Part shown: positions 7,129 through 12,755 of the stretch, piece by piece
How positions within the stretch are numbered: position 1 is the stretch's first letter
Layout: every line of letters begins with the position of its first letter
Virus record (IMG/VR): IMGVR_UViG_3300026224_000012
Reading direction: 5' to 3' (one strand)
Length of the DNA stretch: 14,132 nucleotides
Source of the DNA: a virus
Lineage: Duplodnaviria > Heunggongvirae > Uroviricota > Caudoviricetes
Position numbers and translations under genes: made by a program
Notes under the pieces: model-generated
What the model saw: only the letters and a program-made list of their open reading frames with translations
What the model was told of the DNA's origin: nothing
Databases searched by the model: none

Positions 7129-7243
7129 GGGACGGCGGCAAGTTATCCAAGCACCCATGTAATTTAAAAAACTGGGTAGAAAGAGATGGACCGCAGGAAG
7201 AATGGCTGCTATTCTTCAGTTACTTTCGCTGGAGATGTATGGA

Positions 7244-8125
7244 ATGCTTAAAAAAGCGACAATTAATATAAAAACTGATGAGATAAATCTCTATCAAGGA
7301 GACTGTCTTGAGTTGCTAACCATGATGGACGATTCTTCTGTAGATCTCATCGTTACTTCACCACCGTATGCAGATCAACGAAAGAGGACTTATGGTGGCA
7401 TTGCCCCTGACAAGTATGTTGACTGGTTTTCACCTATAGCGGAGCAACTGCTACGGGTTCTTAAGCCTTCAGGCTCCTTTGTGCTTAACATTAAAGAGAA
7501 GGTAGTGAATGGCGAAAGACATACATATGTTTTAGAGCTTATTCTTAAAATGCGAGAGCTGGGTTGGCTGTGGACAGAAGAATATATCTGGCATAAGAAG
7601 AATTCATTCCCTGGTAAATGGCCTAATAGATTCAGAGATTCTTGGGAACGCTGTCTGCACTTTACAAAAAACAGAAAGTTTGCAATGTACCAAGAAGCGG
7701 TTATGGTTCCTGTGGGGGACTGGAAGAATGAGAGGCTAAAAAAATTAAGCTCGCGGGACATGATGAGGGATGAGTCGCGAGTTGGTAGTGGGTTCGGAAA
7801 GAACATTTCAAACTGGCAGGGAAGAGAAATGGCATACCCGACGAATGTGCTGCACATGGCAACTGAATGTGGTAACAAAGGCCACAGTGCAGCATTCCCC
7901 GAAGTTCTTCCTGAATGGTTTATTCGTTTGTTTACAACAGAAGGCGATGTTGTTTTGGATCCGTTTGCAGGCTCAGGCACTACACTTGTGGCGGCATCTC
8001 GCCTGTCCAGAAAGTCAGTAGGTTTTGAATTGCTTGATGAACACTGCCAAGTAGCTAAAGAACGACTTGGGCTGGAAAGAAAAAGGTTAACTAGCGTAGT
8101 AAGTTACAGCAAAAAAGCTGAATAG
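7244..8125 (+). CDS. Orphan beta-class DNA amino-methyltransferase (N4-cytosine or N6-adenine)
   Basis: ORF is open from 7202; ATG at 7244 has SD GGAG at 9-nt spacing. Motif IV DLIVTSPPYA precedes motif I VVLDPFAGSGTT, which is the beta-class order; SPPY suggests N4-cytosine. GC content is visibly lower than in flanking phage genes. Confidence 0.85.
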   Translation: MLKKATINIKTDEINLYQGDCLELLTMMDDSSVDLIVTSPPYADQRKRTYGGIAPDKYVDWFSPIAEQLLRVLKPSGSFVLNIKEKVVNGERHTYVLELILKMRELGWLWTEEYIWHKKNSFPGKWPNRFRDSWERCLHFTKNRKFAMYQEAVMVPVGDWKNERLKKLSSRDMMRDESRVGSGFGKNISNWQGREMAYPTNVLHMATECGNKGHSAAFPEVLPEWFIRLFTTEGDVVLDPFAGSGTTLVAASRLSRKSVGFELLDEHCQVAKERLGLERKRLTSVVSYSKKAE

Positions 8126-8177
8126 GTTTCTGGTTTATGGTAGTTTTCTCCTTGGTTAACCAAAGAAGGAAAATACA

Positions 8178-8459
8178 ATGTCAGGAACATGCATCATTGA
8201 AGGATGTGGTAGACATGCAGATAAAATTATCGGTGTGCGTCTGAGACGTGAACTGGATAATTTATCTGCAATTTGGGCCCACAATACTAACGCTTATTTG
8301 TGTGATGAACATGCAGCTATGGGATTTGATGTAGAAGTAACATTTACCCCTCGGGATGACAAGACCATTAGAACAGTTGTAAGCAACGGTGATGGTGATC
8401 CAGTTGTTCGACTGAAAGCAATCACCAAACCTGTCAACCCAGATGGAACGGAAGACTGA
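8178..8459 (+). CDS. Small zinc-ribbon-like hypothetical protein (93 aa)
   Basis: SD AAGGAAAA before the ATG. Carries CxxxxC...H (CIIEGCGRH) and CDEH motifs. AT-rich codon usage like the adjacent methyltransferase; followed directly by a terminator. Confidence 0.6.
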   Translation: MSGTCIIEGCGRHADKIIGVRLRRELDNLSAIWAHNTNAYLCDEHAAMGFDVEVTFTPRDDKTIRTVVSNGDGDPVVRLKAITKPVNPDGTED

Positions 8460-8477
8460 GGTTAGTATATTTATTAT

Positions 8478-8502
8478 AAAACCGCCTTCGGGCGGTTTTT
8501 TT
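8478..8502. terminator. Rho-independent terminator, potentially bidirectional
   Basis: AAAA-ACCGCC-TTCG-GGCGGT-TTTTTTT: a perfect 6-bp GC stem with a TTCG loop, flanked by an A-run and a T-run. Confidence 0.7.
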
Positions 8503-8528
8503 ATGCTTGCAAAAACTAAACTGCTGAG

Positions 8529-8806
8529 ATGGTAAAGATAATGGGAATCATAGAAATTATTGCTAGCGGTATTGTTGTGCTGGTTGCAGCCGCACTCAGC
8601 GTTTTTTACTGGCAATGTTCGTGGTTGTGGAAAAGTAGCAGAGAAAGCCAAACAGCAGCGCACCGAAGAGAACGCAGTGGCGATCGTTGCAGCAATATCT
8701 GGGCTTCACTGCCGGGGCTGGTTATGGTCAGTTTGAGCATAAAGTTGACAGCCTGATTGCAAAATTCAAAGAAGCTGGCGGAACGGTCAGAGAGATTGAG
8801 GTATGA
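8529..8806 (+). pseudogene. Chimeric ORF or remnant: unrelated N-terminal segment joined to the vestigial 3' end of a lambda R-type endolysin gene, with a 1-nt frameshift
   Basis: 8683-8806 closely matches the 3' end of lambda R as I recall it (RCSNIWASLPG, then after one missing base AGYGQFEHK.DSLIAKFKEAGGTVREI.V*), including the terminal ATGA overlap with Rz. 8529-8682 encodes an unrelated hydrophobic N-terminus in the same frame. The intact track ORF ends at 8756. Confidence 0.45.
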
Positions 8807-9246
8807 GCAGAGTCACCGCGATTATCTCCGTTCTGGTTATCTGCATCATCGTCTGCCTGTCATGGGCGGTTAATCATTACCGTGATAACGCCATCACCTA
8901 CAAAAAGCAGCGCGATAAGGCCGCATCCATTATCGCTGACATGCAGAAACGTCAAAGTAATGTAGCTGAACTCGATGCCAGATATACAAAGGAGCTTGCT
9001 GATGCTAACGCGACTATCGAAAGTCTTCGTGCTGATGTTTCTGCTGGTCGTAAGTGGCTGCACGTCAAAGCAGTCTGTCCGGACATGCATAAAACCACCG
9101 CCGCCTCCGGCGTGGATGATGCTTCCAGCCCCAGACTTACTGACACCGCTCAACGGGATTATTTCGTTCTCAGAGAGCGCATCGAAACCATAACTAACCA
9201 ATTGAATGGCCTGCAAGAGTATGTGAGATCACAGTGTTCATATTAG
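8803..9246 (+). CDS. Rz: i-spanin Rz (inner-membrane spanin subunit)
   Basis: N-terminus [33 protein letters not shown] is near-identical to lambda Rz as I recall it. ATGA overlap with the upstream frame. Confidence 0.9.
9002..9193 (+). CDS. Rz1: o-spanin Rz1 (outer-membrane lipoprotein), embedded in the +1 frame of Rz
   Basis: SD AAGGAG (8989-8994) 7 nt before the ATG at 9002. Lipobox LLVVSGC followed by the proline-rich KPPPPPAW...TPLNGII, matching lambda Rz1. Confidence 0.85.
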
Positions 9247-9284
9247 AAAAGTCTTATCATGAGATTTTTGTATATGGATGCATT

Positions 9285-9659
9285 ATGTCTCAATACGCGC
9301 GCGCCGCTTTAATCGCTTATCATTTGGTTGCTGATAGCTCAATGCCTCCTCGTGATGTATGGGATACAGCTGTCGCAGAGGTTACAGAAAGCGAATCGTC
9401 AAGAAAGAAGATATGCCCAAGGGCAACATTTCTCGCCCTAGCGGATAGCGGTTACCTCAAGAATGTAAAACCACTGCATGGGGAGAAAAAGGGCGGTAAG
9501 TTGTACCAAAGGGCAATTGAAGTTGCGAATCTGATTCTTGATTTACCCGGAATCAGTAAAGCTGAATTGGTTGATAAAACTGGTTACAAAGACAGGCAAG
9601 GGTCTTATGACCTGATTCTCGCTCTGTATCATCATGAGCAACTCCAGCGACCGGAATAA
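9285..9659 (+). CDS. Hypothetical protein (124 aa), AT-rich cargo gene
   Basis: ORF track 9234-9659; first ATG at 9285. No family recognised. Lower GC than the flanking structural genes. Confidence 0.6.
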   Translation: MSQYARAALIAYHLVADSSMPPRDVWDTAVAEVTESESSRKKICPRATFLALADSGYLKNVKPLHGEKKGGKLYQRAIEVANLILDLPGISKAELVDKTGYKDRQGSYDLILALYHHEQLQRPE

Positions 9660-9776
9660 TTATCCCGGCATCAGTGTCAAAAATAGGCAGTGATACGCTA
9701 TTTTCCTGAAAATACTTTACTAACATTTTATGAGAATTATCCTAGTAAAGTGTTTATTTAAAAGGAGTTTGGGTTT

Positions 9777-9980
9777 ATGAAAATTCTCTGGGTCATCAGT
9801 CTTTTGTGTAGTGCTATTGGATTTATTGAAGGAATCCTCGGGGTTTTCGGTGCTCAGAGTGCTCCACAACAGGCTGCAGGTGCAGCAATGGGAGTAGCAT
9901 GGGCAGTTATTCCATATTGTATTTGTCGTGCTATCCAACAATTGCGCCCTCGAGAAGTCATTATTAAAAAGGAAGAATGA
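9777..9980 (+). CDS. Small membrane protein (67 aa, two predicted transmembrane helices)
   Basis: SD AAGGAG (9762-9767) 9 nt before the ATG. Two hydrophobic helices separated by a short polar loop, with a charged C-terminus KKEE. Confidence 0.55.
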   Translation: MKILWVISLLCSAIGFIEGILGVFGAQSAPQQAAGAAMGVAWAVIPYCICRAIQQLRPREVIIKKEE

Positions 9981-10045
9981 CCAGATCTTATCCGGTGTTT
10001 TTTCTGTCTAAGCCTCGCGTCGCGGGGCTTTTTATTGGAGCCAGC

Positions 10046-10396
10046 ATGCCACCACGAACCCCAAAAGCCTGCCGCGTTCGCGGCTGCCGCCAAACCACCA
10101 CTGACCCGTCAGGCTACTGCGAAAGCCACAAAAGCGAAGGCTGGAAACAATACAAGCCAGGACAATCCCGTCACCAGCGCGGCTACGGTTCGAAGTGGGA
10201 TGTTATCCGCGCGCGCGTGCTGAAGCGTGACAAAGGCCTGTGTCAGTTGTGCCTGCGTGTCGGTGTGGTGCGTGAGGCGAAAACCGTTGACCACATCATC
10301 CCTAAAGCGCATGGCGGCACTGATGCAGACTGCAATCTGCAGAGCCTGTGCTGGCCGTGTCATAAGACGAAGACGGCCCGTGAACGACTGAAGTGA
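10046..10396 (+). CDS. Phage-associated HNH endonuclease (terminase accessory type)
   Basis: ORF is open from 9977, but the ATG at 10046 has SD GGAG at 5-nt spacing and gives a typical 116-aa HNH protein (CRVRGC...C.SH ... DHIIPKAHGGTD..NLQSLCWPCHKTKT). Sits immediately upstream of the terminase genes. Confidence 0.85.
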   Translation: MPPRTPKACRVRGCRQTTTDPSGYCESHKSEGWKQYKPGQSRHQRGYGSKWDVIRARVLKRDKGLCQLCLRVGVVREAKTVDHIIPKAHGGTDADCNLQSLCWPCHKTKTARERLK

Positions 10397-10423
10397 TAAT
10401 AACTCTCAACTATCTGCGGGGGA

Positions 10424-10483
10424 GGGGCGGGTCAAATCCCTGTGACCTGACGTCTTCCGGACTGCCCGCCCCATCGTTTTTTT
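10424..10483 (+). terminator. G/C-rich inverted repeat followed by a T7 run; candidate terminator and/or cos-region structure
   Basis: GGGGCGGG (10424-10431) pairs with CCCGCCCC (10465-10472) across a 33-nt loop, followed by TTTTTTT (10477-10483). Lies in the HNH-TerS intergenic region, where cos sites of HNH-containing packaging modules usually sit. Confidence 0.4.
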
Positions 10484-10522
10484 ATACCCGCGAAAAATGA
10501 AATTTAACCAGGAGTGCCGCAT

Positions 10523-11008
10523 ATGGCTGGAACGGCGGGGCGTTCCGGGCGTCGCCCCAAGCCAACGGCGCGCAAGGCGCTGGCCGGAAACCCCGGCAAG
10601 CGAGCCCTGAATAAAGATGAACCTGTTTTTACGCCCATCAAAGGTGTTGAGCCACCGGAGTGGTTCGCTGAAGAAGATCTCCCTCTCGCCACGATCATGT
10701 GGCAACTGACAACCAAAGAACTCTGCGGTCAGGGCCTGCTGTGCGTGACTGACCTGGCGGTACTTGAGCGGTGGTGTGTGGCCTATGAATTCTGGCGACG
10801 TGCCGTGAAAAATATTGCCAGACAGGGCAACACCATCACCGGTGCAATGGGCGGCATGGTCAAAAATCCGGAGCTGACCGCCAAAAAAGAACAGGAGTCC
10901 GAGATGAGCAGCACGGGGGCAATGCTCGGACTCGACCCCAGCAGCCGCCAGCGTCTGATTGGCCTGGCGGGGAAGAAGAAAGCCACTAACCCGTTTCTGA
11001 CAATCTGA
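10523..11008 (+). CDS. Terminase small subunit (P27 family)
   Basis: SD AGGAG 8 nt before the ATG at 10523 (track ORF starts at GTG 10514). N-terminus [27 protein letters not shown] is typical of P27-type small terminase subunits. Confidence 0.85.
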
Positions 11009-11021
11009 AAATCATCGAATC

Positions 11022-12755
11022 ATGAGCCGGAAATCTTACCCCAACGTAAATGCAGCCAATCAGTATGCCCGTGATGTCGTGCGCGGAAAGATTGTGGCCT
11101 GCCAGTTTGTGATTCAGGCCTGCCAGCGCCATCTTGATGACCTGATGGCGGAAAAAAGTAAGTCGTTTCGTTACCGCTTCGACAAGGACCTGGCTGAACG
11201 GGCCGCCAAATTTATTCAGCTGTTGCCGCATACCAAGGGTGAGTGGGCATTCAAACGGATGCCCATCACGCTGGAGCCGTGGCAGCTCTTTGTGATCTGC
11301 TGTGCGTTTGGCTGGGTCAATAAAGGTACCCGGCTGCGCCGCTTCCGGGAGGTGTATACCGAAATCCCCCGTAAGAACGGCAAATCGGCAATCTCTGCCG
11401 GTGTCGCCCTGTATTGTTTTGCCTGTGATAACGAGTTTGGCGCGGAAGTGTATTCCGGTGCCACGACAGAGAAACAGGCGTGGGAAGTCTTTCGCCCGGC
11501 GCGACTGATGTGTAAACGCACACCCATGCTGACGGAAGCGTTCGGGATTGAGGTTAACGCCTCAAACATGAACCGTCCGGAGGATGGCGCGCGGTTTGAA
11601 CCGCTGATCGGTAACCCCGGTGATGGATCATCACCCCACTGTGCGGTGGTGGATGAATATCACGAGCACGCCACCGATGCGCTTTACACCACGATGCTTA
11701 CCGGGATGGGGGCGCGACGTCAGCCACTGATGTGGGCCATTACTACTGCCGGGTACAACATTGAGGGGCCGTGCTACGACAAGCGGCGGGAAGTTATCGA
11801 GATGCTCAACGGGTCGGTACCCAACGATGAACTGTTCGGGATCATCTATACCGTTGATGAAGGTGACGACTGGACCGACCCGCAGGTGCTGGAAAAAGCC
11901 AATCCAAATATTGGCGTGTCGGTTTATCGCGAATTTTTGTTAAGTCAGCAGCAGCGTGCGAAAAATAACGCCCGTCTGGCAAACGTCTTTAAAACAAAAC
12001 ACCTCAATATCTGGGTGTCGGCGCGTTCGGCGTATTTCAACCTGGTGAGCTGGCAGAGCTGCGAGGATAAATCACTGACCCTTGAGCAGTTCGAGGGGCA
12101 GCCGTGCATTCTGGCCTTTGACCTGGCGCGTAAGCTGGATATGAACAGCATGGCGCGACTTTATACCCGCGAGATTGACGGTAAAACGCATTACTACAGT
12201 GTGGCCCCGCGTTTCTGGGTACCGTATGACACGGTGTACAGCGTCGAGAAAAATGAAGATCGACGGACAGCCGAACGCTTTCAGAAATGGGTGGAAATGG
12301 GCGTTCTGACCGTTACCGATGGTGCGGAGGTGGATTATCGCTACATCCTCGAGGAGGCCAAAGCGGCGAACAAAATCAGCCCGGTCAGTGAGTCACCCAT
12401 CGACCCCTTCGGGGCGACCGGATTGTCACATGACCTTGCTGATGAAGACCTGAACCCCATCACTATCATTCAGAACTACACCAACATGTCCGACCCGATG
12501 AAAGAGCTGGAAGCGGCAATTGAATCGGGGCGCTTTCATCATGATGGCAATCCCATCATGACCTGGTGTATCGGCAACGTGGTCGGCAAAACCATTCCGG
12601 GTAACGATGATGTGGTGAAGCCCGTCAAAGAGCAGGCGGAAAACAAAATCGATGGTGCAGTTGCGCTGATTATGGCGGTTGGCAGAGCCATGCTGTACGA
12701 GAAAGAAGACACGCTGTCTGACCACATTGAGTCCTATGGGATCCGCTCGCTTTAA
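11022..12755 (+). CDS. Terminase large subunit
   Basis: 577 aa with an N-terminal ATPase region and a C-terminal nuclease region ([13 protein letters not shown]), directly downstream of TerS. Confidence 0.9.

Follow-up and report, generated by a model that had tools for sequence, protein, structure and literature searches.

Here we show that the low-GC (guanine plus cytosine) block at positions 7129-8510 of the virus record IMGVR_UViG_3300026224_000012 (the window, i.e. the whole 14,132-nucleotide (nt) stretch analysed) is a moron, a mobile cassette composed of a predicted promoter, the gene of a beta-class DNA methyltransferase (MTase), a hairpin, the gene of a 93-amino-acid (aa) Cys/His protein, and a terminator. 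We refer to the MTase as M, to the Cys/His protein as Z, and to a restriction endonuclease (REase) as R, and write gene orders as M-R-Z or M-Z. Judged by gene order and protein similarity, the pair is M together with the third gene of a widespread type II restriction-modification (R-M) system (M, EcoO109I/PmeII-family REase, Z) whose REase has been lost. The explanation that we favour, with moderate confidence, is that this M-R-Z-derived moron encodes an enzyme that would methylate cytosine N4 in GGWCC, giving protection, and that a GGWCC site in the -35 hexamer of its own predicted promoter would provide feedback on expression.

The kinship with M-R-Z systems is evident in the most distant of the close Z homologues (P0012), which is the third gene of an operon encoding a PF01555 MTase, a PF14511 (RE_EcoO109I) endonuclease, and Z, and whose MTase is 67% identical to the M of the window over its full length. 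In 20 of the 28 Z loci compared, Z is accompanied by an MTase of the same clade and a REase of the EcoO109I family; the set spans Gammaproteobacteria, Betaproteobacteria, Bacteroidota, Acidobacteriota, Verrucomicrobiota, and Desulfuromonadales. The M-R-Z order was also found in metagenomic loci (L014-L017) and on small mobilizable ColE1-like plasmids (5.2-5.7 kb) of Salmonella, Klebsiella, Enterobacter, Raoultella, Aeromonas, and Citrobacter. M is 64-81% identical to the MTases of M-R-Z and M-Z cassettes, and 64-75% identical, at full length, to those that have a partner REase. In the window, M and Z are separated by 52 nt that hold no REase gene, i.e. the complete M-R-Z arrangement is absent, and a tblastn search with four cognate REases, covering the window and 16 related loci (each up to 20 kb), found no REase (best E 3.7). 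M is an orphan at this locus, as a sequence-only reading of this DNA had proposed.

The same three-gene module is present as cargo on the Citrobacter ColE1-like plasmid pCS36-4CPA (KM373703), known from sequence analysis only, in which three open reading frames (ORFs) were reported as 'THAP DNA-binding domain' (a CDD call), 'EcoO109I domain', and 'YhdJ-like methylase' (PMC5935869). This plasmid and its 5.6-kb relatives carry the same MTase clade (70-75% identity) and the same Z family (51%), share a TGGACC-17-TAATAT promoter 5' of M, and keep an EcoO109I/PmeII-family REase between M and Z, where the window has a short spacer with a hairpin. The sequence-only reading had suggested an undescribed two-gene anti-defence or defence module; this description has to be abandoned, as the pair represents two-thirds of a module already on record. 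A 70%-identical copy of the MTase without Z occurs in the virulent Jerseyvirus Salmonella phage SE2 (L001, NC_016763 31.1-32.0 kb), where it is annotated as a 429-bp coding sequence only and was matched by tblastn in two pieces, and is thus probably disrupted; according to the literature, it is 99% identical to pCS36-4CPA.

The gene for M (7244-8125; all cassette features lie on the + strand) encodes 293 aa within an ORF that is open from 7202 (307 aa). The PF01555 profile is covered in full by M (positions 1-221 of 221; 150.5 bits, with the cut-off at 26.7; 8.8e-44), both of the motifs noted previously, SPPY (aa 53-56, 7358-7369) and DPFAGSGTT (aa 253-261, 7958-7984), are intact, and motif IV lies N-terminal to motif I, which is the beta-class order. 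ATG 7244 is probably the true start, since MLKK and a GGAG Shine-Dalgarno sequence 9 nt upstream are kept in three lineages and since the predicted promoter falls within the 5' end of the 307-aa ORF. The best solved match is the N4-cytosine (N4C) MTase M.PvuII (PDB 1BOO), which aligns with aa 25-285 of M (E 4e-34) and has the same motif order and an S-P-P-aromatic motif IV, followed by the cytosine-N4 MTases 8S9M and 8S9N, while the N6-adenine enzymes CcrM, MboIIA, and RsrI score below the N4C enzymes. Based on the SPPY motif and these top matches, M is probably N4-cytosine-specific. The similarity to M.PvuII is moderate, however, the specificities would differ (CAGCTG versus, probably, GGWCC for M), and PvuII uses a helix-turn-helix (HTH) C protein.

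That the block is clearly lower in GC content, as the sequence-only reading had noted, was confirmed: at 42.8%, compared to 51.3% for the window, 7129-8510 is the lowest-GC 1.4-kb stretch, and just 1.3% of 1382-bp windows are as low (minimum at 7161). Two further stretches (5378-5862 and 9234-10045) have equally low GC. Over 3011-7001 and 10046-12376, the phages SKA5 and 118970_sal3 share 96-97% identity with the window; they lack the block and hold a different 1.2-kb segment where the window has 7002-10045. The existence of these otherwise collinear relatives without the block, together with its deviant GC, identifies it as a horizontally acquired moron, in keeping with the initial proposal, with a clear terminator and a predicted promoter. 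The limits proposed for the block stand only in part. While the cassette itself lies within 7129-8510, between a GH19 endolysin that ends at 7128 and Rz/Rz1 spanin genes that start at 8803 (the sequence-only reading had likewise placed it between endolysin and spanins), the mosaic zone is wider, with homology to insert-free relatives being lost from approximately 6918-7001 to 10046. The left junction lies inside the 3' end of the endolysin gene, where identity to SKA5 and 118970_sal3 drops from approximately 97% to approximately 65% (6918-7128, + strand) and BLAST homology stops at 7001. On the right, a spacer (8511-8680) has no match in the phage collection and is crossed by a 75-aa ORF (8529-8756) in a frame different from that of the endolysin remnant that follows. 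This remnant (8681-8806, + strand) is a pseudogene corresponding to the last 41 codons of a lambda/HK620/epsilon34-type endolysin, with 96% nt identity to the endolysin 3' ends of epsilon34, HK620, and others; it has in-frame stop codons upstream, runs directly into Rz, and by this evidence is the right recombination scar. Traces of two endolysins (GH19 and the lambda-type remnant) indicate that the present layout arose by recombination between two different lysis cassettes, and thus that the lysis cassette, as read from these traces, is a recombinant that keeps the GH19 endolysin and the scar of a replaced R-type endolysin.

Similarity at the DNA level to the Pectobacterium and Pantoea copies (71-74%) is limited to 7204-8410, and the order of M, 52-nt gap, and Z is constant at four different sites. 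These are the interval between endolysin and Rz (the window and 10 loci with differing head modules), the interval between Q and holin (a K. oxytoca phage-plasmid), a position 3' of the lysis genes and 5' of terminase (Pectobacterium), and, in a P2-like Pantoea prophage, the interval from the replication gene (Phage_GPA) to the portal gene. The last of these is a hotspot that P2-like phages are known to use for defence cargo. In every host examined, the cassette has a GC content of 37-45% in surroundings of 50-52%. The exact MTase and 93-aa proteins are on record from Escherichia marmotae and 'Escherichia', and the cassette was not found in 5,426 complete E. coli genomes (blastn, near and distant modes). 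Like phage orphan MTase morons, the cassette provides a stand-alone MTase that has its own (here predicted) promoter and terminator, lies among the late genes, is foreign in composition, and is missing from close relatives; it differs from them in its conserved second gene, Z, and in its traceable three-gene R-M family, and while such morons are commonly of the Dam/Dcm type, M is apparently of the N4-cytosine type.

The predicted sigma-70 promoter of M (7187-7215) consists of a -35 hexamer TGGACC (7187-7192), a 17-nt spacer, TG at 7207-7208, and a -10 hexamer TATTCT (7210-7215). It was missed by a generic promoter scan because the -35 hexamer fits the consensus at 4/6 positions. A TGG(A/T)CC-17-TAnnnT arrangement nevertheless recurs 56-58 nt 5' of the ATG in seven other loci (L018, L019, L058, L021, L022, L056, and L057), though their spacers differ. 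In the window, an inverted repeat, GAAGAAT-N7-ATTCTTC (7197-7217; 9-pair stem), spans the promoter spacer and the -10 hexamer and may act as an operator or RNA hairpin. Each lineage has a different palindrome within this 17-nt spacer, including GGCATTAATGCC in K. oxytoca (L058, about 4950-4965) and CCTCC-N9-GGAGG in the plasmids (L056, 5' of M); these lineage-specific palindromes may represent co-evolving operators or may be due to chance. A second inverted repeat, conserved by alignment, lies in the M-Z spacer (8144-8173). Folded as RNA, it would pair the Shine-Dalgarno sequence of Z (AAGGA) with an upstream anti-Shine-Dalgarno sequence and would thus sequester the former; across three lineages, predicted folding energies range from -15 to -20 kcal/mol (z -2.1 to -3.2), and the arms persist despite sequence changes. 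The cassette is closed by the strong intrinsic terminator already recognized in the sequence-only reading (8478-8506), which comprises a stem (8478-8499) of 9 pairs (5 G-C) with a TTCG loop and a tail of seven T residues (fold z-score -3.2), and which is kept in the Pectobacterium and K. oxytoca copies (L019, L020, and L058).

The recognition site of M is probably GGWCC. We base this assignment on the National Center for Biotechnology Information (NCBI) name of the plasmid REases ('PmeII family'), on a conserved GGWCC in the -35 hexamer, and on replicons that carry GGWCC at this site only. Pseudomonas mendocina DNA is modified at GGWCC, matching the PmeII site (PMC8112702). GGWCC lies within the -35 hexamer of the predicted M promoter in all 8 gammaproteobacterial loci, including the window (7188-7192), and in Pantoea, where it reads GGTCC, the A-to-T swap keeps the palindrome and weakens the match to the -35 consensus. 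On three molecules with a complete M-R-Z, namely L056 (5661 bp), L057 (5217 bp), and L021 (4796 bp), the promoter copy is the only GGWCC on the molecule, compared to 8.9, 8.3, and 3.8 sites, respectively, expected from a first-order Markov model. The window itself holds 5 GGWCC sites (23.7 ± 4.3 expected). The placement of the site resembles CfrBI, for which a recognition site inside the -35 region of the MTase promoter has been described, with methylation feeding back on expression (Beletskaya et al. 2000, cited in PMC3874152). CfrBI is of the N4C type, as M probably is; in its case the promoter site is its own recognition site, whereas that of the window is a candidate one. By analogy with this arrangement, we infer that the same feedback logic could apply to the cassette.

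Several observations weigh against this assignment and the interpretation built on it. The 'PmeII family' name was not reproduced when the partner REases were scanned with NCBIfam hidden Markov models, which gave no model match, and their similarity to EcoO109I itself is remote (E 1e-6). GGWCC is also depleted in host flanks and in cassette-free phages (ratio 0.4-0.5), and its avoidance is therefore weak, non-decisive evidence for specificity. The conserved -35 site is confined to gammaproteobacterial copies, which are of shared ancestry, and both the modified base and the recognition site of M were deduced from sequence comparisons.

An alternative that we consider improbable is that the main role of M in the lysogen is epigenetic control of host or prophage genes, and not anti-restriction. 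The predicted promoter and terminator of the cassette imply expression in the lysogen, the prophage already carries a second orphan MTase (Dam family), and solitary MTases are known to affect transcription (reviewed in PMC3874152), all of which would suit such a role. With 5 GGWCC sites in 14 kb, however, there would be few sites to regulate, and plasmids and chromosomal systems that encode cognate REases with 70% identical MTases occur in the same order, such that protection would be under direct selection. Both roles could coexist, and protection against cognate restriction is the one that we consider better supported.

The three-gene type II R-M system spreads horizontally, and the cassette is its derivative after loss of the REase gene. 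Under the protective interpretation, M would methylate N4 of cytosine in GGWCC and would be made from its own promoter in lysogens and by read-through of the Q-antiterminated late transcript during late lytic growth. Prophage, host, and progeny DNA would consequently resist cognate endonucleases, such as those of the ColE1-like M-R-Z plasmids circulating in Enterobacterales, and the lysogen would be immune to killing by M-R-Z systems, while methylation of GGWCC in the -35 hexamer would subject transcription to CfrBI-like feedback. If so, lysogens and phage stocks with the cassette should resist AvaII/PmeII-type cleavage and carry N4-methylcytosine (m4C) at GGWCC; a study of marine viral genomes reported m4C at GGWCC as a combination with no counterpart in REBASE (PMC8919816). 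Taken alone, M would be routine, anti-restriction orphan methylases of phages being familiar. Z is the more noteworthy component, being a widespread unannotated family, with a fold that has no structural neighbour, that is tied to one R-M family across many phyla and kept by prophages even after endonuclease loss.

Z (8178-8459) is a conserved ORF, and its 93-aa product gave no match in Pfam, PHROGs, PADLOC, or NCBIfam, nor by tblastn against 50,697 phage genomes; against PDB profiles it matched only a 40S ribosomal protein S3 chain at E 9e-4, which is irrelevant, the remainder having E >= 0.4. Close homologues form 12 clusters from Enterobacterales in which C5, C10, C42, and H45 are invariant, such that Z is zinc-binding by signature. 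Profile searches extended the family to 125 clusters at 50% identity, nearly all of them stand-alone proteins of 70-115 aa with the pattern C-[IV]-[IV]-x-G-C ... G-[IV]-R-L-R-R-P ... A-I-W-A-P-N ... C-D-x-H-A, i.e. an invariant CCCH set and a conserved R-L-R-R strand. All members with source names are called 'hypothetical protein', and none has a Pfam domain. The Z sequence is identical in at least 23 contigs (59 index blocks listed) and is 72-81% identical in the M-Z cassettes of Pantoea, Pectobacterium, and Klebsiella. Between REase-less copies, the ratio of nonsynonymous to synonymous substitutions (dN/dS) is 0.06-0.10, with dS saturated, consistent with purifying selection. The sequence-only reading had named three outcomes that would count against it (a block carried by all relatives, degenerate MTase motifs, or an unconserved small ORF), none of which was obtained: insert-free relatives were identified, both motifs are undamaged, and purifying selection maintains the small ORF. 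The predicted model of Z is beta-rich with a single 4-residue helix, and represents a confident fold without structural neighbour.

The earlier description of Z as a Cys/His protein that may be a regulator still seems apt, and a regulatory, nucleic-acid-binding role is our best guess for it. We base this on its third-gene position in R-M operons, on its being kept with M under strong purifying selection after loss of R, and on relatives in which the Z domain forms part of Xre-HTH or sigma-70 region 4 proteins, together with distant family members encoded singly by small genes of phage contigs. The invariant CCCH set, the R-L-R-R strand, and the hhalign match to THAP fingers described below also speak for this role. 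In being a small third gene of an R-M operon, Z resembles the C proteins (C.PvuII, C.EcoO109I, and C.Esp1396I), which are presumed regulators of establishment and of the balance between M and R. It is important to note, however, that Z has no Xre-type HTH (no HTH Pfam match, and a beta-rich model) and that, unlike classical C genes, it lies downstream of R; the C-gene layout, upstream of and co-transcribed with R and with a palindromic C-box, was not observed. The gene position counts against Z as a regulator, as does the lack of any operator k-mer common to 22 loci in the 180 nt surrounding the MTase start, where AT-rich words occurred at shuffle level only. As an alternative, Z could act as a partner protein of M; we consider this rather unlikely, since Z also occurs with an unrelated PF01555 MTase (L023, below) and without a nearby MTase in phage contigs and several genomes, its fusions are to DNA-binding HTH domains, and MTases of the clade occur without Z, as in phage SE2.

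By signature, Z is THAP-like, with family membership unproven. Both Z and the THAP C2CH finger (THAP1, 2JTG; P-element transposase) have the ligand order C-X4-C, followed by P, W, and C-X2-H, and then a C-terminal T-P-I-like motif, with Z (C-X4-C-X31-C-X2-H) having a shorter spacer than THAP (PF05485; C-X2-4-C-X35-53-C-X2-H). An hhalign comparison of Z with THAP DNA-binding fingers gave 71% probability (E 3.8e-5) over 45 columns with both ligand pairs aligned, while the Pfam THAP model matches just 2 of 97 Z members (E 0.05) and no THAP structure was recovered. A reading of Z as an HNH-type nuclease, based on a beta-beta-alpha and zinc layout, was ruled out, since D43 is not conserved and the sole invariant His belongs to the zinc site. 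More speculatively, and in our view rather unlikely, Z could be the founder of a new class of non-HTH R-M controllers, i.e. a THAP-like C2CH finger of prokaryotes and phages that senses the methylation state of the -35 GGWCC, or the adjacent lineage-specific palindrome, and sets the expression of M and R, with temperate phages having co-opted M-Z as a self-regulating anti-restriction cassette; the spread of the family (125 clusters, many in phages) would in that case suggest that the animal THAP fold originated in, or at least has a counterpart in, bacteria or phages. Loss of the REase could have left the accessory genes redundant, but such redundancy is contradicted by the conservation of Z and of the translational hairpin and terminator, and we consider it very improbable.

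Three further Z loci depart from the common arrangement. In a Dehalococcoidia genome (L023:2986-5246), the genes that precede Z encode a PF01555 MTase unrelated to M and a REase of the TdeIII family (PF09520), which hints that Z may track a recognition sequence and not one enzyme family; TdeIII presumably cuts GGNCC, although a literature search did not return its recognition sequence. We count this locus as a further pointer to GGWCC as the site of M. P0138 (202 aa) is a chimeric ORF in which Z residues 1-55 run without a break into the C-terminal half of an MTase from the clade of M; while it probably arose by rearrangement or misassembly, it shows the linkage of M and Z in another genome. 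In an Acidobacteriota metagenome-assembled genome (L028), a solitary Z (5001-5228) lies beside an EVE-domain protein (3817-4689 neighbour region) and a UvrD helicase, with no MTase nearby.

Gene calls and family matches place the window in the late-early to late region of a lambdoid-type prophage. Its genes encode, in order, PerC, the second orphan MTase of the prophage (a Dam-family N6-adenine MTase in the nin-like region; 1399-2085, + strand; PF05869, 1.2e-45), a LexA-like DNA-binding protein, RusA, KilA-N, and DUF968, a Q-type antiterminator (4625-5377), two holins (5863-6517), the GH19 endolysin (6517-7128, + strand; Pfam Glyco_hydro_19), the cassette, Rz/Rz1 (8803-9246), and, 3' of these, a DUF6979 protein, a small membrane protein, an HNH endonuclease, TerS, TerL, and portal. 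The Dam-family MTase gene varies among relatives, being carried by some and absent from L003, L004, and L006. The low-GC (42.9%) gap between Q and the first holin (5378-5862) is a variable cargo slot among related prophages, which have a 213-aa, 85-aa, or 56-aa ORF at this position; the window has just one 56-aa ORF (5569-5739) with no family match. A second low-GC (42.6%) segment (9234-10045), missing from SKA5 and 118970_sal3, encodes the DUF6979 protein (phrog_5039) and the membrane protein (67 aa; phrog_12304) just 5' of the HNH endonuclease and terminase genes.

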